The notes below the pieces were generated by a model, which saw only the letters and a list, made by a program, of their open reading frames with translations, did no database searches and had not been told where the DNA came from. Positions 1,276 to 24,229 of a stretch of DNA of 28,682 nt are shown here, in pieces. Source of the stretch: Candidatus Sumerlaeia bacterium (lineage in GTDB: Bacteria > Sumerlaeota > Sumerlaeia > SLMS01); NCBI GenBank assembly GCA_038208905.1, contig JBBQYG010000038.1, positions 1 through 28,682 of the forward strand, written 5' to 3'. The position numbers and the translations under genes were made by a program. The first letter of the stretch is position 1. Each line of letters begins with the position of its first letter.

Positions 1276-3039
1276 CTAGGCCTTCAGCGCTTCGAGGCCG
1301 AGGCGGTGGGTCCAGTCGCCGAACGCTTCGTCCGGCTGGCGCTCCGCGCGCCAGCGCCCGACCAGGCGTGCGATCTCCGGCGGCACATCCTCGAAGAGCA
1401 TGCGCTCCTTGAAGAGCTTGTTGAGTCGCGTCCCCTCGAAGTCTCCGCCGAGGTAGAGGTTGTACTTGCCGGGGGCGCAGCCGATGTGGCCGATCTCCGC
1501 GCTCTCTGGCCGCGAGCAGGAGTTGGGGCAGCCGCTCATGCGGATGGAGATGCGCTCGTGGCCGAGGCCGAGTTCCTCCAGCTTGTCGATGAAGACGGGC
1601 ATGGCGCGTTCCGATTCCGCCAGCGCGAGCCCGCAGGTGGGAAGCGCGACGCAGGCTATCTCGTGCCGGCGGATCTCGCTCAGCTTGCCGTTCACGTTCA
1701 CGGCCAGGCCGGTGTCGGCGAGCATTGCACTGATTTCCGCCTGGCACTTTTCGGAGACATTGGCGAGGAGGATGTTCTGCTGGCCGGTAAGGCGGACCTC
1801 CGGGCGGAACTTCTCCACGATACGGCGCAGGATCGTCCGCGCGGGGCGCCCCGGCGCGTCGATAATGCGGCCGTTTTCGATGAAGATGCCGACGTACATC
1901 AACCCAGGCTGACGCTGGGCGTGCCAGCCAAGATGATCGTCGTATTTCCAGGCGGAGTCGTCGATGGGGCGCGCGGGAGCCAGCTCGATCCCCATGCGGC
2001 GGGACATCTCCTCGCGATACCACGTTTCCCCGACTGCATCCAGCAGGTACTTGAGGCGGGCCTGCTTGCGGTCGGTGCGGTTTCCATAGTCGCGCTGCAC
2101 GGTGATCACCGCATCCACTGCGGCCAGAATATCGTCGCGGTGGACGTAGGCGATGTTGGTGGCGAGGCGCGGATAGGTGGCCTTGTTGCTGTGGGAATGG
2201 CCGAGCCCGCCGCCCGCGACGATATTGTAGCCGGTGACCTCGCCGTCCTTGGTGAGCGCGATCAGTCCAAGGTCCTGTGTAAAGACATCGATGCAGTTGT
2301 CGCCGGGGGTGGTGACGCCGATCTTGAACTTTCGCGGCATATACGTCTCGCCGTAAAGATCCTCATTCGGATCGCGGAGGTTGATGATCGGGACACCCTC
2401 CTGATTCCGCTCTCCGTCTATAAAGATATCATAGAAGGCGGTGGTGCGCGGGAGGGTGCGGTCGGAAATCTGCCGCGACAGCTCGATGAACACGTCGCGC
2501 CCGGCCCACTCGGGGCGCGGGTCCAGGTCGATCACCGGGCAGCTCATCACGTTTCGGACAACGTCTCCGCAGGCGCCATAGGTGGTGAGCAGGCGCGTGT
2601 TGAGCTCGCGGGAGAGGCCCTGCAGCTTCTCCTTCCCGATGCCGTGGAACTGGATCGTCTGGCGCGTCGTCAGGCGGATGGAGCCCTTGGAAAACTTCGT
2701 CGCGCAGTCGTCCAGGATCAGGTACTGGTCGGCGGTGAGGCGTCCGCCGGGCACCTTGGTGCGGACCATGAAGCTGAAGTCCTTGTCCAGCCCGGCGCGC
2801 TTGCGCTCGATGCGCGTGTCGCGGTCGTCCTGCTGGTACATGCCGAAGTGCTTCATAAGCTGGTAGGACTCTTCCGAGACCTCCGGCAGGTTGGGATCGG
2901 TCATCTCCTTGAAGACATCGCCGCGCAGGCCGTGGCTCACGGTCTTGAGATGCTCGACCTTGTTTTTCTTCTCGAGGGGCGCGTCGATGCCGAGCGTTCC
3001 GCGAAGCTCCTCGGGGTCTTGAAAGGTCTTCTCTGACAT
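1276..3039 (-). CDS. cysI: Sulfite reductase hemoprotein (siroheme-[4Fe-4S]; CysI/SirA type)
   Basis: 'KHFGMYQQDDRD', 'RLTTRQTIQFHG', 'GACGDVVRNV', 'YMPRKFKIG', 'RKQARLKY', 'CVALPTCGLA' and 'SGCPNSC'. ATG 3039 is preferred over 3060 because AGGAG lies at 3055-3051. Confidence 0.95.
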   Translation of the reverse strand: MSEKTFQDPEELRGTLGIDAPLEKKNKVEHLKTVSHGLRGDVFKEMTDPNLPEVSEESYQLMKHFGMYQQDDRDTRIERKRAGLDKDFSFMVRTKVPGGRLTADQYLILDDCATKFSKGSIRLTTRQTIQFHGIGKEKLQGLSRELNTRLLTTYGACGDVVRNVMSCPVIDLDPRPEWAGRDVFIELSRQISDRTLPRTTAFYDIFIDGERNQEGVPIINLRDPNEDLYGETYMPRKFKIGVTTPGDNCIDVFTQDLGLIALTKDGEVTGYNIVAGGGLGHSHSNKATYPRLATNIAYVHRDDILAAVDAVITVQRDYGNRTDRKQARLKYLLDAVGETWYREEMSRRMGIELAPARPIDDSAWKYDDHLGWHAQRQPGLMYVGIFIENGRIIDAPGRPARTILRRIVEKFRPEVRLTGQQNILLANVSEKCQAEISAMLADTGLAVNVNGKLSEIRRHEIACVALPTCGLALAESERAMPVFIDKLEELGLGHERISIRMSGCPNSCSRPESAEIGHIGCAPGKYNLYLGGDFEGTRLNKLFKERMLFEDVPPEIARLVGRWRAERQPDEAFGDWTHRLGLEALKA

Positions 3040-3044
3040 CGTTG

Positions 3045-4985
3045 TCACAGCTCCTTGCACCGCGTGTCGGCGGTGCCCATGTTGGGTATATACGCTCTCA
3101 TTTCGAGTTCGGCGACGACCATCTCGGCGCAGTCTTTCAGGCTGCTAAGACCCGTGTCCACGACGAGTTCCGGCTTGGCGGGCGGCTCGTAGGGCGAGCC
3201 GATTCCCGTGAAATCCTTGATCTGCCCCGCGCGGGCCTTGCGGTACAGCCCCTTGGGATCGCGCTGCTCGCACACGGCGAGGTCGGCCTTGACGTGAACC
3301 TCCACGAAGGTCTCTGGCTGGAGCGCGCGCGCCATGTCGCGCTCGTGGCGGAAGGGGCTGATGAACGCCGCCAGGGTCACGATCCCCGCGTCGCTGAACA
3401 GGCGCGCCACTTCGGCGATGCGGCGGATGTTTTCCTTCCGGTCCTCCTCGCCAAAGCCCAGCCCCTTGCTGAGGCCCATGCGGATGTTGTCCCCGTCGAG
3501 CACATAGGTCCTGACGCCGCGCTCGTGGAGGATCGCCGACACCTCGTTGGCGAGGGTGGACTTGCCCGATCCGCTGAGGCCCGTGAACCAGAGCGTGACG
3601 CCGCGATGGCGGTTCTGGTTCTCGCGCATTTCGCGCGTCACTTTCTGCGAGTGCCACACGATGTTGGGCTCGGGGGCTGGGGGGTCCTTGGGGGCTTCGC
3701 GAGCGAGCTTGATCCCCGATTGCATCTCGCGATAGGCTCGGCTTAGCACCTCGCCCACCTCGGGGCGCATGATGCGCTCGTCGGGGGCAACGCCGCTGCG
3801 CAGCAACTCGCGCAGCTTGCGGTCGGGGATCGTGACGGTCTTGAGGCCCCTGTCGGCGTGGTCGGCGATGAGCGCGACGGCGCCCAGTTCCTCGAAGTAC
3901 GCGGCGGCGCCGACGAAGATCGGCTCGATCAGGAGCTTGCCGGCAAGGCTCTCGAACTTTGCCCGCGCCTCCGTGCCGGAGGGAAAGCTACTCCCCGAAT
4001 CATAGAGCGGATCCGCGGTGCCGTGCCCGATAATGATGTGGGTGAAGCCCATGTTCTGGCGATAGATCGCGTGCATCACGGCCTCGCGCGGGCCGCCGTG
4101 AAACGTGCGCATTTCCAGCGCATAGAGGTCGAACACATCGTTTATTGTATATCCAGCCTGCCGCCAAAGGCTCTCCTCGGCGTCGCCCTTGCCGAGGAGG
4201 CGCATCTCCTTCAGCACCGCGTGGGAGGCGATGCGGACCTCCGCGGGAACATCGTCCCAGCGGGTCTCGCTGGCGAGCGGCGTCAGCACCACGCCGGCCC
4301 ACGTTCCGGCGTGCATCAGGCGTTCCGCCGCCACGACCATCGCGTACTCGTGATCGCGGCGCAGCGGCCGCCGCGCGGGCATCGCAATGGCGGCGGACCA
4401 ACCCTTGACCTTCAGCAGCGCGCGGACGCGGTCGGTCGAGTGCGTGTAGCGCGCGATGGCCTCGTTGGGCCGAAAATCCGAGGGGAACACGTGGATCTTG
4501 CCGCCCGCGAGCCAGCCGCGGCGGTCCTCCAGCGTTTGGCGCGCCCCCGGATGCTCGGGCGTTTCGCTGCCGTGAATCACGAGACAGTAGCGCGCCTTGT
4601 CCCACGCATAGACATCTTCGACTTCGAGCAGGGCGACTTCCTCGCCGCGCTCCGAAACCATGATCGCGGGCTGGCCCGGCTTGACCGCGGCCTTCTCCTC
4701 CTCGGTGAGGGGAAACGCGATCGGCACGCCCCAGGCCCACGAGTCGCCGTTGGCAATGATGATTTCCTCGTCCAGCACGCGATCCCACACATCGCGCGTC
4801 ATCGGACCAACCAGCGGCGTCAGCAATCCATCGCCGAATCGCCGCACGGTAAGGAGGTCGATGCCACTGACGACGATGCGCGGCGCGTCGGCATGGGCTC
4901 GGCTCAGTTCCACCGCGCGCTCTGCGCCAACAAGGCGCACGGCCAGTTCCTTCGCTCCGCCGTGGGGCTGCATGGGGACGCTCAT
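3045..4985 (-). CDS. cysC: Fusion of a Sat-type ATP-sulfurylase-like domain (active-site motifs degenerate) and an adenylylsulfate kinase
   Basis: N-terminal Sat scaffold: 'PHGG..L', 'LTPLVGPM', 'HPGA', 'GPREAVMHAIYRQNMGFTH', 'IMRPEV'. C-terminal APS kinase: 'WFTGLSGSGKST', 'LDGDNIR', 'ENIRRIAEVA', 'RDPKGLY', 'FTGIGSPYEPP'. ATGA overlap with the cobA-hemD stop. Confidence 0.93.
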   Translation of the reverse strand: MSVPMQPHGGAKELAVRLVGAERAVELSRAHADAPRIVVSGIDLLTVRRFGDGLLTPLVGPMTRDVWDRVLDEEIIIANGDSWAWGVPIAFPLTEEEKAAVKPGQPAIMVSERGEEVALLEVEDVYAWDKARYCLVIHGSETPEHPGARQTLEDRRGWLAGGKIHVFPSDFRPNEAIARYTHSTDRVRALLKVKGWSAAIAMPARRPLRRDHEYAMVVAAERLMHAGTWAGVVLTPLASETRWDDVPAEVRIASHAVLKEMRLLGKGDAEESLWRQAGYTINDVFDLYALEMRTFHGGPREAVMHAIYRQNMGFTHIIIGHGTADPLYDSGSSFPSGTEARAKFESLAGKLLIEPIFVGAAAYFEELGAVALIADHADRGLKTVTIPDRKLRELLRSGVAPDERIMRPEVGEVLSRAYREMQSGIKLAREAPKDPPAPEPNIVWHSQKVTREMRENQNRHRGVTLWFTGLSGSGKSTLANEVSAILHERGVRTYVLDGDNIRMGLSKGLGFGEEDRKENIRRIAEVARLFSDAGIVTLAAFISPFRHERDMARALQPETFVEVHVKADLAVCEQRDPKGLYRKARAGQIKDFTGIGSPYEPPAKPELVVDTGLSSLKDCAEMVVAELEMRAYIPNMGTADTRCKEL

Positions 4986-6466
4986 GCGATGCCCTCCTGG
5001 GCGGCGGGCTCGGGATGCGCCGTCAAGTCCTCGACCGCGGCGAAGCCAAGCCGCGACGCGGCGGCGGAGGCCAGCTCGCCAATGGCGATGGCGCGCAGCG
5101 ACGGCAGAGGCGCCTCCGCGTAGATCGCGGCGAAGTCCTCCACCGCGCGGGGGCTGGCGAAGAATACCGCGTCAACAAAGGCGAAATCCACTGGGGCGGG
5201 CTGGCCGGCTTCCGCGCGATAGACTGCGATGCACGCAACATCCGTCGCGCCCGCGCGGACGAGTTCCCCCGCCATGCCGCCCCGATAGTGGGCCGCGCAG
5301 GGAAAGGCGACCCGCTGGCCGGCAAAGACTTCGCCAAGCCCGCCGCTGACGAGGTGATCGGGGAGGAGCGCCAACGCCTCCAGTGCCTCGACCGTCTCCT
5401 CGCCCGCCGCCGCAATGCGCGCGGAAATACTGCGCGCGTCATGGCCTGACTCACGCAGCAGGGCGAAGAACTCCCGCGCGGAATGCGGGTTGTTGAAGAG
5501 CAGCCAGTCCGCCCCCCGCGCATCCGCGACAGCGATTCGGGCCTGGGCGCGGGCCTCGCCTTCGAGCGGATGGAACGCCGTCACCGGCCTCCAAAGCATC
5601 GAGGCGTGGGGAAATCGCGCGGCCAGCAGCGGCGACACGCGCGAGGAGGTGACCATGATCGTCTGCGCGTGGCGCGGGCCTCCCGCCCGAGAATCACGGC
5701 CCAGCGCCGCCGTTTCCCCCACCACGAGAACCGCGGGTGGCTTGATCCCCGCCGCTTTCACGGCGGCCTGAATTCCAGAGAGCGGCGCCCTCGCCACCTG
5801 CTGTCTATACGTGGTGCCGCTGGCGACAAGCGCGGCGGGCGTCCCGGGCGCGACGCCGCGGGCGAGGAGCCGTGCCACAATGTCGCCCAGCGCCTCCACA
5901 CCCATCAGGAAGATGCGCGTGTCCGACTCGCCGGGCTCGGGAAGAACGCCGTCCTTGCCGCGCCCGGTCCACACGGCGAAGCCCCGCGCCAGCTCGCGAT
6001 GCGTCACCGGAATCCCGGCGGCGGCGGGAACCGCGAGCGCGGAGCTGATGCCGGGGACCACGCGGCACTCGACGCCGCGCGCGGCGAGGAAGTCGCGCTC
6101 CTCGCTGCCGCGTGCAAACACGAAGGGGTCGCCGCCCTTTAGTCGCACGACGCGGTTTCCTGCGCGGGCCTCGGTCAGGAGGGTTTCGTTAATCTGGTCC
6201 TGCGACGCGGGACCATCGCCGGGGCGCTTGCCCACGTCGATGCGGCGCGTGGCCGGGGGGAGCGCCTGGAGCAACTCCTCGCACCCGAGCCGGTCGTGTA
6301 CCACCACGTCGGCCTCCGCCAGAAGCTGCCACCCGGCCAGCGTCAGCAGTCCCGGATCGCCGGGTCCCGCGCCCACGAGCCAGACCTCGCCCGGACCGAA
6401 GCCGCGACCGAGGGGCGGGGGTTGCGGGTGGCGCCGGGGGCTGATGTTTTGTAGCTTGGTTGGCAA
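4982..6466 (-). CDS. cobA: Uroporphyrinogen-III C-methyltransferase fused to a uroporphyrinogen-III synthase (HemD)-like domain
   Basis: 'VWLVGAGPGDPGLLT', 'ADVVVHDRL', 'VRLKGGDPFVFARGSEE', 'VPGISSA' and 'AGIPVTHR'. The C-terminal half has HemD-like patterns ('WLLFNNPHSA', 'AAAGEET', 'VFFASPRAV', 'IAIGE'). The start is uncertain (TTG 6466 or 6517). Confidence 0.88.
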   Translation of the reverse strand: MPTKLQNISPRRHPQPPPLGRGFGPGEVWLVGAGPGDPGLLTLAGWQLLAEADVVVHDRLGCEELLQALPPATRRIDVGKRPGDGPASQDQINETLLTEARAGNRVVRLKGGDPFVFARGSEERDFLAARGVECRVVPGISSALAVPAAAGIPVTHRELARGFAVWTGRGKDGVLPEPGESDTRIFLMGVEALGDIVARLLARGVAPGTPAALVASGTTYRQQVARAPLSGIQAAVKAAGIKPPAVLVVGETAALGRDSRAGGPRHAQTIMVTSSRVSPLLAARFPHASMLWRPVTAFHPLEGEARAQARIAVADARGADWLLFNNPHSAREFFALLRESGHDARSISARIAAAGEETVEALEALALLPDHLVSGGLGEVFAGQRVAFPCAAHYRGGMAGELVRAGATDVACIAVYRAEAGQPAPVDFAFVDAVFFASPRAVEDFAAIYAEAPLPSLRAIAIGELASAAASRLGFAAVEDLTAHPEPAAQEGIA

Positions 6467-6599
6467 CGGAAGGGATGGCCGGGAGCGTGGGGGATTCGGG
6501 GCGCGGCGAAGGGGCAACAGCTTGCCCGCGAGGCCCCCGCCCCGCGCAAGTGCAACGATGAATCAGGGCGACCGGAGGGCGTCAATAGAAATACCGATT

Positions 6600-6623
6600 A
6601 TTCCGACCGGATTAGTCCAGATT
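6600..6623. promoter_or_regulatory. Candidate Rrf2 (CymR/IscR-like) operator upstream of the cobA-cysC-cysI-rrf2 unit
   Basis: ATTCCGAC-CGGATTA-GTCCAGATT, an imperfect dyad with GAC-N7-GTC in the AT-rich patch at about 6583-6623. It lies just upstream of a minus-strand TTGACG (6585-6580). Confidence 0.45.
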
Positions 6624-7163
6624 GGCCAGACCCCCCTCCGCCTCCCAATCCACGCCTTCGATGGCGGCGGTGATGGCCTGGCGCAGGCGCTTGGCGCGCC
6701 CGGGGGACTGGCCAAAGGTGGAGATGGAAATAAGCACGCCCTCCTCGGGGTGGCGGATCACGGCGGTGGTAAAGAAATCGGAACCCTCGGGATCGTCGGC
6801 CACATTGACCGGGACGCCCGCGGCGTTGGCGGCCCGGGCAACCGCGCGATTTGCCTCCCGGTGGTTGGTGGCGGCAAAGATGAGGTTGAAAATTCCGACC
6901 TCCGGCGCGCCGTCGGGAAAACTCCCGGGGACGTGCCCGATGGCACCGCTTGCGTGGAGCTGGCGAAGCTCGTCGGTGATCTCGGGACTAAGCACCGTCA
7001 CGCCGAATCCCCCTTCCAGTAGTCCGCGGACCTTGCGCGTGGCGACGGCGCCTCCGCCCACGACGAGGGCACTCCGCTCTGGCCCCACCAGGACCACCGG
7101 ATAGAATGCTCCCGATTCGATCCGCTTCTGGCGCCGATCGTGCAACTCGTCCTCGTGCGTCAT
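6612..7163 (-). CDS. sirC: Precorrin-2 dehydrogenase / siroheme synthase N-terminal-type protein (SirC/Met8p-like)
   Basis: 'FYPVVL...ALVVGGGAVATRKVRGLL', 'LIFAATN....N..VA', 'VNVADDP...DF' and 'ISISTFGQSP..AKRLR'. The real start is ATG 7163; the longer ORF-track extension to 7916 is antisense to the chelatase gene. Confidence 0.9.
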   Translation of the reverse strand: MTHEDELHDRRQKRIESGAFYPVVLVGPERSALVVGGGAVATRKVRGLLEGGFGVTVLSPEITDELRQLHASGAIGHVPGSFPDGAPEVGIFNLIFAATNHREANRAVARAANAAGVPVNVADDPEGSDFFTTAVIRHPEEGVLISISTFGQSPGRAKRLRQAITAAIEGVDWEAEGGLANLD

Positions 7164-7205: not shown

Positions 7206-8261
7206 ATGAAACCACAGCCCCTCCCCGGCGGCAAGCCCCCCCGCATCGTGATCGTGGCCCACGGTTCGCGCTCGCGGGAGTGGGTCGCCGCCCTGCGCGC
7301 GTGGCATCGCGGCGTGGTGGAGCAAATGGGCGACGCGGGCGGCGCCGTGGAGCTGGCGTTCCTGGAAATCGCGGAGCCGTTGCTGGAGGACCGCCTCGGC
7401 GATCTCGCGAAGCAGGGCGGGCCGGTGGTCGTCGTGCCGTTCTTCCTCTCTCGCAGCGGCCACGCCGGCGACGATGTGCCGCGCATCGCCGAGGAGAAGC
7501 TGGGGGGGCACGTGCCGTGGCGGATTGTCTCGCCACAGGGATGGGAGACGGTTCTTGGCCGCAACGCCGCGAGGCGCCTCCTGGCGGCGGGCGCGCGCAC
7601 GGGCGACCCGGTGATCGTGTCGGGCTATGGCGCCTCTCATCACGACGAACTGTGGCGCGAGTTGATCCGCGAAGTCCAAGACGCGGCGGGGCCGTTTGCC
7701 GGAGGCGCGCCGTGGCTGTGGGCGCCGAGCGGGCATTTTCTGGCGGACTACGGGGCGCCGCTGCGCACTTGTCTCGCGTCGGTGGAGAGAAGCGCGCGCC
7801 GGATTTCCACACGCCACGCCACGATGCGCCGCGGGAGCGGCGCCACATTCGTCGCCCCGGACTTCAGTCCGGGGTTCACTGGCCCCGGTGGATTCCGACG
7901 CCCGCAGGGATCGCACAGTCGCGCGCCTGTTGGACCCCTCCCAGGGTCCGGTTCCCTATCCTCTCGCGTCCCCGGACTGAAGTCCGGGGCTACGAATGTG
8001 GCGTCCCTGCCGGGACGCACGCGACTGGCGTCGCCGAGAGGTCGCGGCAAACCCCGCGCGGCGATACTTCCACTTTACCTTTCGGTCTCCACCTATCAGA
8101 AGGAACTTATTCCGGCGGCGATCTCGGAGTTTCCCGGGCTCCGAATCAGCTTTCAACCCGACGCCATCCTGCCCGACGCTGAACTGGAGTCGTGGATGGC
8201 TCAGCTTCTGCTGAGGGAGTTGTTGCCGGAACCGCGCCGCATTGGCCAAGGAGCCCCATGA
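7206..8261 (+). CDS. CbiX/SirB-family (sirohydrochlorin) chelatase with an in-frame REP-derived insertion
   Basis: 'IVIVAHGSR', 'AFLEIAEP' and 'VVVPFFLSRSGH..DDVP' form the first CbiX unit. The second unit runs 'VIVSGYG...APLRTCL' [insert] 'AILPLYLS....Q..LIP'. ATG 7206; the stop overlaps the cysH start (ATGA). Confidence 0.82.
   Translation: MKPQPLPGGKPPRIVIVAHGSRSREWVAALRAWHRGVVEQMGDAGGAVELAFLEIAEPLLEDRLGDLAKQGGPVVVVPFFLSRSGHAGDDVPRIAEEKLGGHVPWRIVSPQGWETVLGRNAARRLLAAGARTGDPVIVSGYGASHHDELWRELIREVQDAAGPFAGGAPWLWAPSGHFLADYGAPLRTCLASVERSARRISTRHATMRRGSGATFVAPDFSPGFTGPGGFRRPQGSHSRAPVGPLPGSGSLSSRVPGLKSGATNVASLPGRTRLASPRGRGKPRAAILPLYLSVSTYQKELIPAAISEFPGLRISFQPDAILPDAELESWMAQLLLRELLPEPRRIGQGAP
7826..8018. 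repeat. REP doublet / REPIN-like palindromic element (GTAG family B) inside the chelatase CDS
   Basis: 34-bp inverted repeats at 7841-7874 and 7970-8003 (33/34 match), each holding a perfect CCCCGGACT-NN-AGTCCGGGG hairpin preceded by GTCG or GTAG. Accessory hairpins at 7826-7843, 7932-7949 and 8001-8018. Confidence 0.9.
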
Positions 8262-9085
8262 ACCTCGATTCGTCCCGCGGCAGCCAGACCACCAGCCGCG
8301 TTGGCGTGGCGGTGTTCAAGGGCACGGGCTCGCGCCTGGAAAGTCTCTCCGCCGACGAGATCATCCACTGGACGCTGGATACTTTCCCCATTGGGAAAAT
8401 CGCTGTGCTCTCCGCCTTTCAGAAGGCCGGATGCGTCCTCTGCCACAGCATCGCGCGCCTCGGTCTTCAGTCGCGCGTGGACGTTCTGTTCGTGGACACG
8501 GGGGTGAACTTTCCCGAGACGATCGAGACGGTGGATCGCTATCGCACTGAGTATGGCCTCAACGTGATCGCGCTGCATCCCGAGCGCACAATGGCCCGGC
8601 AGACGGCGGAGGAGGGCGTGCTCTATCTCTCCAAGGAGGGGCAGGAACGCTGCTGCGAATTGCGCAAGAAGGATCCGTTGAAGCAGATCCGCGGGCGCTA
8701 TGAGGCGCTGCTGTCGAGCCTCCACCGCAGTGATGGCGGCCGCCGCGCCAAGACCCCCGTTCTCGCGCCCGACATCGAACTGAATCTCGTCCGCATCCAC
8801 CCGCTGATCAGCATCACCGAAGAGGAAATCGAGGCCTATATCCGCCAGCACGGCGTGATCGTGAATCCGCTCCACGACCAAGGCTACCCGACGGTTAGCT
8901 GCGCGCGATGCACCACGCCGGTCCTCCCTGGTGAGGACGAACGCGCGGGCCGCTGGCGCCACTTGGAGCACGCCTCTCAATACTGTAACATCAATCCGAC
9001 CGACCGGGCGCGAGGGGGCGACAACTCCGACTTCGTGGAACTCAGCTACGAGACGGCGCTGAAGATCGAGAACTACGACATCTGA
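8258..9085 (+). CDS. cysH: APS/PAPS reductase (CysH family) with Fe-S-type CC...CxxC ligands
   Basis: 'FVDTGVNFPET', 'RCCELRKKDPL', 'NPLHDQGYPTVSCARCT' and 'GEDERAGRW'. AAGGAG RBS just before ATG 8258. Confidence 0.92.
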   Translation: MNLDSSRGSQTTSRVGVAVFKGTGSRLESLSADEIIHWTLDTFPIGKIAVLSAFQKAGCVLCHSIARLGLQSRVDVLFVDTGVNFPETIETVDRYRTEYGLNVIALHPERTMARQTAEEGVLYLSKEGQERCCELRKKDPLKQIRGRYEALLSSLHRSDGGRRAKTPVLAPDIELNLVRIHPLISITEEEIEAYIRQHGVIVNPLHDQGYPTVSCARCTTPVLPGEDERAGRWRHLEHASQYCNINPTDRARGGDNSDFVELSYETALKIENYDI

Positions 9086-9157
9086 CGCGCGGTTTCCCTC
9101 GACACGCCCCCACGCCCAACCGAAGTTGGCCTTGTGCTTGTCGAGTTAGGCATACCA

Positions 9158-22200: not shown

Positions 22201-22406
22201 TCCTGTGGGAGACGACGCAGGACCAGTATCCCGCGACGGCGGAGAAGCAGGAGGCCCTGGCGCGCGGCGTGGCGGACCAGTTGACGCTCCGCTTCGGAGA
22301 GACGGGCAAGAGCCAGTGGGACGGCGCCGCCGCGGGCCTTGAATCCCGATTCGAGAGGGCGCGGGCGATCTTCGACCGCGTGCTCGACGGCCTAGGCTGT
22401 GTTTGA
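19224..22406 (+). CDS. glnE: Bifunctional glutamine synthetase adenylyltransferase/deadenyltransferase
   Basis: Two nucleotidyltransferase halves. First: 'RIGIRD', 'MGKLGAGELNFSSDVD', 'FRVDARLRPEG', 'DIKRGTGGIREIEF', 'RRVEH.LQM'. Second: 'GDLD', 'VDARLRPDG', 'WEWQVLTKAR', 'DMKSSPGGVVDVEF'. Confidence 0.93.
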   Translation: MTDAPDEPEESAASPAHRYPILSLEPGESLAAFLDRLLAIHNWPAESRAGDRPLLASLLASVGEEHGAAEFGAHLVRSLSFSADPAMALRHFDRYLRALGDGMASEVSGLPHNPEQLHFLSSLFSFSQYLSEIVIAHPEYLAWIFRHSRLNREKPVERYREQLAEALAPHADFEARRAAATLFKKRELLRIGIRDIRELGMTGELCRELSSLAQAVVEVALEECRARLLAIHGLPISETGGGESGYCIYAMGKLGAGELNFSSDVDIIFVYDEEGETEGVPVGLGGQRVRRVSNHEYFNALSRDVSSWIMDRNAEGFLFRVDARLRPEGINGPLARSRPAYSAYLNTQAGVWEKIAYQKARCLAGDGKLASVFDKIVEQFVYTHNVAEELFPEIARLKRRIDHESLDAESRKLDIKRGTGGIREIEFLVSAEQLLHGEDMPALRVRSTLMGLSMLEAAKIMDADTAERLERAYHLFRRVEHTLQMMHEAQTHRMPSDPREREALALRCGFLKPADFEKTIAGLRDFVRTRFEEKFHARGEDAGLSLLDHLLFTEEPPDEVLEQLRPAGLGTQEGYRALKALATGTREYAPSASARADFAKLLPMLLAELPGVALPELAVRHFDQMMKAARGNKFVYEMCLTHPPILRLFLRTLGFGSFLARQLIAHPEWLEEIFRGGGLTEGRTDEALASLAPPTGSIGNDLRRIRQFKQLEGFLLSTQEVLAVAPAPAAAARATRLAEGVLRFVAAVAEREALEGIGASRLPARWAIIGLGGIGDGQVHIAGDLDIAFVVEGNDVWMGEAMTRWVDRVGQIAIGHMAAISPDGQLWKVDARLRPDGAGAPLAATADRFVEYYRREAGLWEWQVLTKARAVAGDLGFGGEVLSRLYKVFGEIGPLPGLAGEIQSMRRRIEEHVRVPRNALFDMKSSPGGVVDVEFLTQFFQLGNHAEAAVLFPMTTEQALAEFIRRGDVPAEDGAWLLDHLGLLRILQRAHRVLWETTQDQYPATAEKQEALARGVADQLTLRFGETGKSQWDGAAAGLESRFERARAIFDRVLDGLGCV

Positions 22407-22556
22407 CAATTGCATTCGGCTTTCCGATGGCTGCGAACCTTCGTCCTGACGCGTCGCGATTCCTCGACGATGAACCACATCGCCTCGTCATCGGCGCCAT
22501 CGTCATGACTCGTTCTCGCTCAACGGACCAGCTCGAAGCCATTTATCAAACACAGC

Positions 22557-23837
22557 CTAGTCAGTGAGTTCCCGCAACGCCTCGCGCAGCCCCGCCAGAG
22601 CCCGGGCGCGGTGGCTGATGCGATTCTTGACCTCGTCGCCAAGCTCCGCCAGGTGCGCGCCGTCGAATCCGTCGGGAACGAAAATCGGATCGTAGCCAAA
22701 GCCCGCCGCGCCTCGCGGGCCATGGGCGATGTGGCCCTCGCAGGTGCCGGAGGCGTGGAATTCACGCCCATCGGTTGATCGTAGGACAACGGTGCAGGCA
22801 AAGCGCGCCGTGCGCTTTTCGTCGGGCACGCCATCGAGCTCCGCCAACATGCGTGCGTTGCGCTCCGCCGCGGTGGGGGCATAGCGGCTGCTGTGGATTC
22901 CCGGTCGCCCGTCAAGCGCGTCCACCTCGAGGCCGCTGTCGTCGGCGAGAGTCCACGCCCCGGTGCGCTCGCCCCAGGCGCGTGCCTTGATCTGCGCGTT
23001 TGCAATATACGTGGAGCCATTTTCGTCCGGCTCCGGCGCGCCGGGAAACAGATCAGTCCCCTGTATATACAGCGGAAGGTCGCCGAGAATCGCCGATATC
23101 TCTCCAAGCTTGTGCGCGTTCCCTGTGGCGACGAAAAGCGGCGCTACCGGCCGCAGATCCGGCTCCAGCTCCGGATAGCTTCCCGGACCGCGCAGCACAA
23201 CCACCCGGCGACCGACCACCCTCAGCCGGTCGCGTGAAAACAAATCCACCGCGAGCGGCAGCGCGCGGTGCTCCTCGGCCAGAATCCGCGCCGAAAGATC
23301 AGCCTCCGTGTCGGTCGGATATGCGGGCACGGCGCGCTGGGCGATGATCGGGCCCTCGTCCATGCCCAGCGTCACGAAGTGCGCGGTGCAGCCCGCCACC
23401 TTCACGCCGTAGGCATGGGCCTGCGACTGTGCGTGAATGCCAGCGAACGCGGGGAGCAGCGACGGATGAATGTTGATCATTCGACCCGCGAAAGCGCCGA
23501 CAAGCACCGGTGTCAGCAAACGCATATACCCGGCGAGGATCAGGAAGTCGATGCGACGGGCCTCCAGCTCGCGGATGATCGCCGCCTCGTGGGCCTCGCG
23601 ATCCTTGCCATAGGATCGATGGTGCACGCATAGGCCGGGAATGCCCTCGCGCTGCGCGATCTCCAGCGCGCCTGCCCCCGGAAGGTTAGAGAGCACCAGC
23701 GCGAACTCCACGTTGGGCAACCGGCCCGCCTTCGACTCCGCGAGCAGCGCCAACAAGTTGGATCCACGCCCGCTGGCGAGCACCGCGGCGCGCAACGGCC
23801 TGGCCGGCGGATTCGGCGGCAGGATTAAACCGCTCAT
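22557..23837 (-). CDS. purN: Fusion: phosphoribosylglycinamide formyltransferase (PurN) + RdgB/HAM1 non-canonical purine NTP pyrophosphatase
   Basis: PurN: 'LASGRGSNL', 'LAGYMRLL', 'NIHPSLLP', 'GCTAHFV...MDEGPII'. RdgB: 'ATGNAHKLGEI', 'ANAQIKA', 'ADDSGL.VDALDGRPGIHS.RY', 'GFGYDPIF', 'KNRISHR'. One uninterrupted frame from ATG 23837. Confidence 0.93.
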   Translation of the reverse strand: MSGLILPPNPPARPLRAAVLASGRGSNLLALLAESKAGRLPNVEFALVLSNLPGAGALEIAQREGIPGLCVHHRSYGKDREAHEAAIIRELEARRIDFLILAGYMRLLTPVLVGAFAGRMINIHPSLLPAFAGIHAQSQAHAYGVKVAGCTAHFVTLGMDEGPIIAQRAVPAYPTDTEADLSARILAEEHRALPLAVDLFSRDRLRVVGRRVVVLRGPGSYPELEPDLRPVAPLFVATGNAHKLGEISAILGDLPLYIQGTDLFPGAPEPDENGSTYIANAQIKARAWGERTGAWTLADDSGLEVDALDGRPGIHSSRYAPTAAERNARMLAELDGVPDEKRTARFACTVVLRSTDGREFHASGTCEGHIAHGPRGAAGFGYDPIFVPDGFDGAHLAELGDEVKNRISHRARALAGLREALRELTD

Positions 23838-24229
23838 GGAAGCGCCTGGTTGGCGAACGACAACCGGATCACGCCGCATACCAGCAGGTCGCCGCGCCGG
23901 ATCGCGCTGGCCTCGGCAAATCGCGCGAGCGGCCCATCGGCGGCCTGAACCTGCACCACACCCCGCCACGGCGCGCCGCGGCCAAGGAGCGCCTCCTCCA
24001 GTCCGCCCGGTACCTTGTCCCGATTGCCGAATCCCAACAGCGAGAACGACAGCCGGTTCACCAGCGCCTCCGCCCGTTCGCCAAACAACTCCTCAGCGGC
24101 GGCGTTCAGATACAGCGAATTGGCAAGCCGATCCGTCAGTATCAGCGGCGAGGCATCGAACAGCGCGGCCATATCGGAGGCAAGTTGCAGGTCGGCGGGC
24201 TGGGGCCAGAGCGAGGCGGGAAGTTCCAA
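23834..24229 (-). CDS. Stand-alone PAS-domain protein
   Basis: 'ALFDASPLILTD.....LYLNAAAEELFG....ALVNR', 'WRGVV' and terminal beta strands. TTG start; the stop overlaps the purN start (ATGA). Confidence 0.72.
   Translation of the reverse strand: MELPASLWPQPADLQLASDMAALFDASPLILTDRLANSLYLNAAAEELFGERAEALVNRLSFSLLGFGNRDKVPGGLEEALLGRGAPWRGVVQVQAADGPLARFAEASAIRRGDLLVCGVIRLSFANQALP

Follow-up and report, generated by a model that had tools for sequence, protein, structure and literature searches.

The window, i.e. the whole stretch of 28,682 nt that was analysed, from an assembly of a Candidatus Sumerlaeia bacterium, carries a divergent cluster of siroheme and sulfate genes (Table 1). The gene on which we focus is an open reading frame of 351 codons without an internal stop, whose own stop codon overlaps the start of cysH as ATGA, as stated in the preliminary description made from the sequence. 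The profile of an alignment of 14 homologues identified SirB from B. subtilis as its best match (E 7.5e-18), and the predicted model was aligned with the SirB structure 5zt7 over 238 residues (Z 19.9, rmsd 3.2). H19, E54 and H86 correspond to the SirB metal ligands His10, Glu43 and His76 (available part of PMC11301274), and all three are kept. The protein thus exhibits both the two-domain fold and the His/Glu/His ligands of SirB-type class II chelatases; it shares this fold, the N-terminal location of the ligands and the siroheme gene context with B. subtilis SirB (PDB 5zt7, 6jv6; PMC11301274, same part), to which it is only 17% identical and which, like all orthologs, lacks the 84-residue loop discussed below. 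At least one of cysH, the precorrin-2 dehydrogenase-like gene and cobA-hemD lies beside the chelatase gene in 11 of 12 ortholog loci, and this gene context points to iron insertion into sirohydrochlorin as the role of the enzyme. It is the sole CbiX match in the genome, where no match to CbiK or to the CysG middle domain was found (the assembly is 94% complete). Of the 9 ortholog loci examined, 7 show the ATGA overlap, which is therefore older than the insertion. The nearest orthologs show 51–56% identity, and two protein searches returned none above 56%.

Table 1. Features of the chelatase locus (positions in the window)
Feature	Position	Strand	Remarks
cobA-hemD fusion, sat-cysC fusion, sulfite reductase hemoprotein	1276..6517	-	siroheme-requiring pathway
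precorrin-2 dehydrogenase-like gene (CysG N-terminal type)	6612..7163	-	first of divergent siroheme and sulfate cluster
SirB-like class II chelatase gene, host of the insertion	7206..8261	+	351 aa; Pfam CbiX; SirB profile match; model alignment; ligands
probable left copy of duplicated target	7764..7811	+	the protein still relies on the 5' part (RTCLASVER); the 3' part has decayed
84-codon excess over orthologs	7791..8042	+	G/S/R/P-rich; predicted disordered; ends uncertain by a few codons
head-to-head doublet of ~95-bp three-hairpin repeat, REPIN-like, gene-less	7825..8019	.	195 bp; 9 bp below the usual 204 bp
outer hairpin, left	7827..7842	+	family-conserved
tag (GTCG here; consensus GTAG) and central palindrome, left	7851..7874	+	
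inner hairpin, left	7893..7914	+	decayed in the window copy
inner hairpin, right	7931..7950	+	
central palindrome, CTAC tag and outer hairpin, right	7970..8017	+	full-length sub-threshold match to RF01687 Acido-Lenti-1
probable right copy of duplicated target	8016..8076	+	the 5' part (RTRLAS...) has decayed; the protein uses the 3' part (GKPRAAILPL)
cysH (PAPS/APS reductase)	8258..9085	+	start overlaps the chelatase stop codon as ATGA; this arrangement is ancestral

Several other features of the window deserve mention in their own right. Fused genes are found at 3045–6517 and 22557–23969, namely sat-cysC, cobA-hemD and formyltransferase-Ham1 (one stop-free frame). Between glnE and the purN/Ham1 gene (22392–22562) lies a MITE-like element of 170 bp that carries terminal inverted repeats and has CTAG at either end, and whose 17 other near-full genomic copies are 92–99% identical and thus indicate a recent expansion. 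A second, unrelated family of GTAG-tagged palindromes, with many genomic copies, is represented at 771–835.

Comparison with 25 ortholog rows (some of which represent one protein from two sources) revealed that the chelatase is longer by 84 aa (252 bp, hence an exact number of codons) than 19 of them, and by 83–89 aa across all 25; the stretch between the invariant P185 and P289 comprises 105 residues here vs 16–22 in the orthologs, none of which possesses the 84-aa loop. This agrees with the preliminary description, which had read an open frame with a Pro/Gly/Arg/Ser-rich insert of roughly 65–85 aa and had proposed an alignment with orthologs and a structure prediction as checks. In the predicted structure, which has the SirB fold, residues 213–279 of the insert have pLDDT values below 50, with most of the core above 85, so that the insert is predicted to be a disordered loop; it comes after the last helix ahead of the strand 284–290. 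The class II chelatase fold has an internal symmetry, which together with the SirB alignment would place the insertion site at a helix-to-strand turn in the C-terminal half, at that end of the strand which is remote from the metal ligands.

The repeat element accounts for 195 bp of the excess, leaving a remainder of 57 bp. Its arms (7841–7874 and 7970–8003) are complementary at 33 of 34 positions as originally noted, and the sole mismatch is indeed GTCG for GTAG in the left arm; the change is silent (GTC vs GTA, both encoding Val216), which rules out removal of a stop codon as its cause. Other details needed revision: the full inverted repeat (7825–7874 and 7970–8019; 50 nt at 88%, longer than any other of the window's 750 pairs) extends slightly beyond the interval 7826..8018 given before, the perfect 9-bp hairpin reported for each arm exists, but with a 2-nt centre, so that its fold has a stem of 8 bp and a loop of 4 nt, and instead of three smaller hairpins there are four good ones plus one decayed. 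The stretch 7820–8025 folds as RNA with z = -8.5 (none of 200 shuffles was equally stable), and DNA folding of the element stretch gave z -6.5 against shuffles.

The profile search of the genome identified 27 matches in 23 clusters, among them 10 full doublets of 195–207 bp, mostly 204 bp; the genome has 10 exact copies of the 24-mer of the family and 23 with up to 3 mismatches, while a scan of the genome contigs with an exact 26-nt pattern gave no match. Each half-unit consists, in this order, of the outer hairpin, an AACAATC linker, GTAG, the central palindrome, ~20 variable bases and the inner hairpin. Per-position conservation across the copies stops at the outer hairpin, and the flanks of 12 doublets, compared for longer repeats only, have none in common. 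The family thus exhibits the features of REPs, i.e. a short palindrome with a 5' GTAG tag repeated in the genome, although in low copy number for a REP family, as well as those of REPINs, i.e. an inverted doublet with conserved spacing, diverged spacer and hairpin fold. Among the nine aligned copies, that in the window has moved furthest from the consensus (19 of 146 positions differ), which argues for an insertion of long standing. A literature search for Sumerlaeota together with repetitive extragenic palindromic sequences found nothing.

The window copy is also the only one of the 23 loci that lies inside a recognisable gene, in line with the earlier remark that REPs are normally extragenic: the other 22 clusters lie outside or at the margins of recognisable genes, as judged by Pfam searches of 61 ORFs and GC3 rather than by a gene caller, so that overlaps with gene starts may occur. 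Long ORFs spanning other copies were considered as further in-frame cases and rejected, since none of the 61 has a domain on both sides of a copy; a NAD-GH match in one spanning ORF is what we take to be the antisense shadow of an Hsp70 gene. Of 9 non-coding full copies, 6 have no stop in the reading phase used in the chelatase gene (counting all frames of non-coding copies, 19 of 54 are open), and the length is divisible by 3 in 9 of 10 full copies, so that translation through the element needs little luck.

Some copies elsewhere show peculiarities of their own. Three copies (L025 and L039; C4 and C172 of this genome, G000) lie between genes of bat-type operons (DUF58, BatA, VWA, BatD). Copies in contigs C5, C18, C26, C121 and C191 share a further motif ~40–70 bp beyond the outer hairpins, which in C121 and C191 occurs on both sides and inverted, as would be expected of a sub-family of greater length or of nesting within a different repeat; L001, a locus with a Y1 transposase gene, has a similar motif beside it. 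At C5:19549–19854 a hairpin doublet is seemingly interrupted by a piece of the 170-bp MITE.

Searches of related genomes identified the element in 14 out of 40. In five relatives a Y1_Tnp gene is enclosed by half-units whose inner hairpins point toward it, and the five enclosed proteins form one clade (94/88), all with the motif Y...Q..HH (motif scan of 30 loci). Both partner proteins scanned with the IS200 family model matched it, one of them above the cut-off. The partners exhibit the HUH motif, Y---Q--HH and the short core of TnpA-Y1 subclass 1.2, an assignment by motif and size rather than by position in the published tree of that subclass; none of the five has the Y...NP motif of class 2 RAYTs, hence the element is termed here 'REPIN-like' and not a classical RAYT-REPIN. 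From sequence comparison, the element in the window is best read as the gene-less form of this Y1 cassette. No member of the cognate Y1 clade was found in the present assembly (94% complete). The genome has two Y1 genes of its own, and both were rejected as the cognate partner: L002 is a fragment, and L001 has other hairpins and only 26–31% identity to the cognate clade. L001 (G000:C12:8537–9052) is a long-branched Y1 transposase gene flanked by its own CTTCAG-loop hairpins.

The right arm of the element aligns with the whole Rfam model RF01687, Acido-Lenti-1 (29.6 bits, E 3.6e-5), but below the gathering score of 37. The genome contains 8 such matches, all of them arms of this element family (28–31 bits). 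Genomes G046, G052 and G053 are rich in such repeats, with ~80 Rfam matches each. Thus, by its sequence, the arm is a distant relative of Acido-Lenti-1, not a member by threshold. Among the 24 loci with the Y...Q..HH motif, which come from related genomes and are not independent, six lie near an Acido-Lenti-1 match above the threshold, and 13 lie near a window-type unit or an Rfam match of any kind, against 0 of 5 loci outside that clade. The literature on Acido-Lenti-1, in its available parts, yielded no link to a transposase. A long G-rich/C-rich inverted heptamer-like array at L037:101–285 matches plant miRNA models by hairpin shape only.

What is the origin of the additional 57 bp? At an offset of 252, the left flank matches 8016–8033 at 14 of 18 bases, in an 18-nt window chosen after the match had been seen; of 200 offsets this one scored highest (genome null P 0.0023), and it falls exactly at the length derived from the orthologs. 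In a gapped alignment of 61 bases, the decayed left stretch pairs with the codons for RAAILP (P ~0.02), and both halves resemble native helix-strand sequence (RTCLAS/RTRLAS). With the nearest orthologs at 51–56% identity, both the ends and the duplication are read from decayed sequence. We consider it rather probable that the 57 bp are a decayed target duplication, of which each copy has kept the half needed by the protein. A less probable, though substantial, alternative is that they are DNA flanking the donor site and carried along, or later small in-frame gains around the element. Indeed, the E. coli TnpA-REP cleaves at a distance and can sequester flanking DNA, which it was proposed to amplify or capture (PMC3333891, in part); such distant cleavage is, however, also a possible route to flanking duplication. 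Flank-repeat tests without an anchor were not significant (P 0.11 and P 0.65), and a run of three CACGC at ~7810–7824 suggests local expansion. These readings do not account for the coincidence of the best diagonal with the ortholog-derived length or for the native-like sequence of both halves, and against carried DNA speaks also that the left flank has no other genomic match above 17 nt among the 40 matches listed.

Other insertions of the family were inspected for comparable repeats. Only one of the 23 clusters in this genome (C55) has a flank repeat at P < 0.02, which is about chance, while 7 of 46 clusters in the relatives have flanking direct repeats at this threshold (one cluster, at a contig end, was skipped). 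Four of the loci, L149, L151, L153 and L154, were discarded as target duplications because of neighbouring repeats of other families or tandem arrays; L126, L058 and L132 have long flanking direct repeats that fit the geometry of a duplication wholly or partly. The clearest such case is L126:1690–1936 (G005), where one three-hairpin unit is enclosed by a pair of ~72-bp direct repeats. In the available parts of the REPIN/RAYT literature no account of long target duplications was found.

Since the assembly is split into 301 contigs and the repeat is multicopy, an artefact of assembly has to be considered, but it is exceedingly improbable. Five distinct 351-aa variants from JGI, ENA and NCBI sources all carry the insert, and its junctions are crossed by contigs from runs of four studies: one contig of the X1 run spans 7209–9100 without a gap (X1 may be the source sample), and pieces from runs X2, X4 and X6 cross one or both junctions, the spacers of the doublet being unique to the window copy. 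Misassembly, named in the preliminary description as a finding that would refute it, can thus be largely dismissed. No joint skipping the insert was seen among the contigs of the 4 runs, which demonstrate presence rather than absence, and a metagenome scan recovered 3 loci, none of them an empty allele. No RNA run figured among the 19 runs listed for the sequence, from which nothing follows about expression. Two metagenome loci (L044 and L045) have a 225-bp copy of the repeat at a place absent from this assembly.

The same variants bear on whether the enzyme still works. Variable residues are concentrated in the insert, 7 of 84 vs 2 of 267 in the host part (Fisher P 0.0009; small counts, taken from assemblies; one of the seven sits at the junction), and one strain contig has 4 nonsynonymous and 2 synonymous changes in the insert vs 0 and 3 in the host part. 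Of 56 conserved columns the latter departs at only one, its end branch, at 0.42, is shorter than the median of 0.68, and residues 283–335, behind the insert, are conserved as in orthologs (mean identity to the other 25 rows 54%, mid-range). The host part of the chelatase therefore looks functional on the evidence of sequence, and conservation and strain variation together make a working enzyme with a nearly neutral 84-residue loop, its frame kept, the simplest reading. That the insertion impaired or killed the enzyme, leaving a young pseudogene whose frame is open by chance and whose task is taken over by the CysG-N-type neighbour or by a gene missing from the assembly, appears improbable to us. 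The load of 84 extra residues is large, the repeat frequently has an open phase in any case and the genome is incomplete; however, the copy that diverged most is not young, yet the host part has hardly changed, the variation is confined largely to the insert, and the sole large indel within the element is 9 bp long.

We give equally little credence to a co-opted insert, be it an mRNA hairpin that tunes the stability or processing of sirB-cysH, a functional disordered loop, or a segment whose frame is kept mainly for coupling to cysH. The outer arms are still almost perfectly complementary and fold strongly, and the insert is present in all five variants, but arms kept equally well are normal in intergenic copies, the residues of the insert vary freely, the left inner hairpin has decayed, and strain changes occur within the arms at 7855 and 8001, which by their positions are not a compensatory pair. 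The coupling to cysH, for which selection had been suggested as possible in the preliminary description, is superfluous as an explanation given that the overlap predates the insertion, and the frame would be kept because the last strands and helices of the protein (residues 283–335) are needed. The broader idea in that description, namely that the chelatase has put up with a mobile repeat of the REP/REPIN kind by accommodating it in a surface loop, is supported by the repeat family, the excess over orthologs and the disordered model of the insert.

We thus favour, as the likely history of the locus, an old insertion of a trans-mobilised doublet, probably with target duplication, into an enzyme that has gone on working with a neutral disordered loop. 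A gene-less doublet of three-hairpin units would have entered the C-terminal helix-to-strand connection of the chelatase long ago. From the element, site, family and partner gene observed we infer that an IS200-like Y1 (HUH) transposase may have catalysed the insertion in trans, in an event that probably duplicated ~57 bp of the target, for which the support is moderate. As the element and the duplicate together would amount to a multiple of three, an intact helix would have remained before the insert and an intact strand after it, and with one phase of the repeat usually stop-free, read-through would not have been unlikely. The outcome, judged from sequence, would be an enzyme whose 84-residue disordered loop drifts almost neutrally while the frame is kept.

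Translated REP-like insertions are already known. REPs with GTAG or CGTC tags, as described by Di Nocera et al. (2013, PMC3733652), are mostly intergenic but sometimes lie wholly inside ORFs of known proteins, where dimers or clusters add 20–30 aa, and up to 43–82 aa in Thauera and R. conorii. The present case resembles them in having GTAG-tagged palindromes translated inside an ORF, but here one three-hairpin doublet and a probable duplicated target make up 84 aa, the host is a metabolic enzyme and not a repair gene, the repeat family and the phylum are others, and only one of 23 loci is intragenic. Rickettsia palindromic elements are likewise long palindromes read in frame in genes that stay functional, but many of their copies are intragenic, they are CGTC-tagged and have no known dedicated transposase (all according to PMC3733652), whereas ours is a single case. 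With the REPIN/RAYT system, or REPtron (PMC3337134, PMC3116915, PMC2817692, and PMC3333891 in part), the element shares the inverted pair of units, the conserved spacing, the diverged spacers and the gene-less dispersal, and, as far as that literature was available, also the occurrence of the same units around a Y1 HUH transposase gene, as in the five relatives; it differs in its ~95-bp three-hairpin unit and in partners with Y...Q..HH, not the class 2 Y...NP. The present case stands out by its repeat family, its size, the strain variation that speaks for neutrality and a duplication that is probable and would be long. IS200/IS605 members are described, in the available part of PMC2817692, as not making larger target duplications, in contrast to what is suspected here.

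TnpA-Y1 subclass 1.2 proteins (Quentin et al. 2018, PMC6006769, in part) are ~150 aa long with Y---Q--HH, occur in low copy number, mostly in Cyanobacteria and Bacteroidetes, and are generally without the typical terminal IS200 structures; this differs from the loci reported here, over half of which (13 of 24) have a window-type unit or an Acido-Lenti-1 match nearby. Acido-Lenti-1 itself (Weinberg et al. 2010, PMC2864571, in part) has the same hairpin-linker-hairpin arrangement, equal length and similar sequence, but is listed as an RNA whose function is not known; in the present genome the unit behaves like a DNA repeat. We would propose only tentatively that subclass 1.2 Y1 enzymes move Acido-Lenti-1-like units by a route that can duplicate 30–150 bp of target, and that inside a gene the spare helix and strand thus created let a ~200-bp element become a loop.

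If so, the orphan Acido-Lenti-1 motif would gain a role in DNA and subclass 1.2 a substrate, and the long-duplication footprint of insertion would be new for IS200/IS605-type enzymes, as far as the available descriptions go. If the long duplication is real, it would be a footprint of how these single-strand transposases insert. Independently of that, the chelatase adds one well-supported case to the translated REP-like repeats, at the upper end of the published sizes and in a little-studied phylum, with population evidence for a loop that appears neutral while the enzyme around it is conserved.
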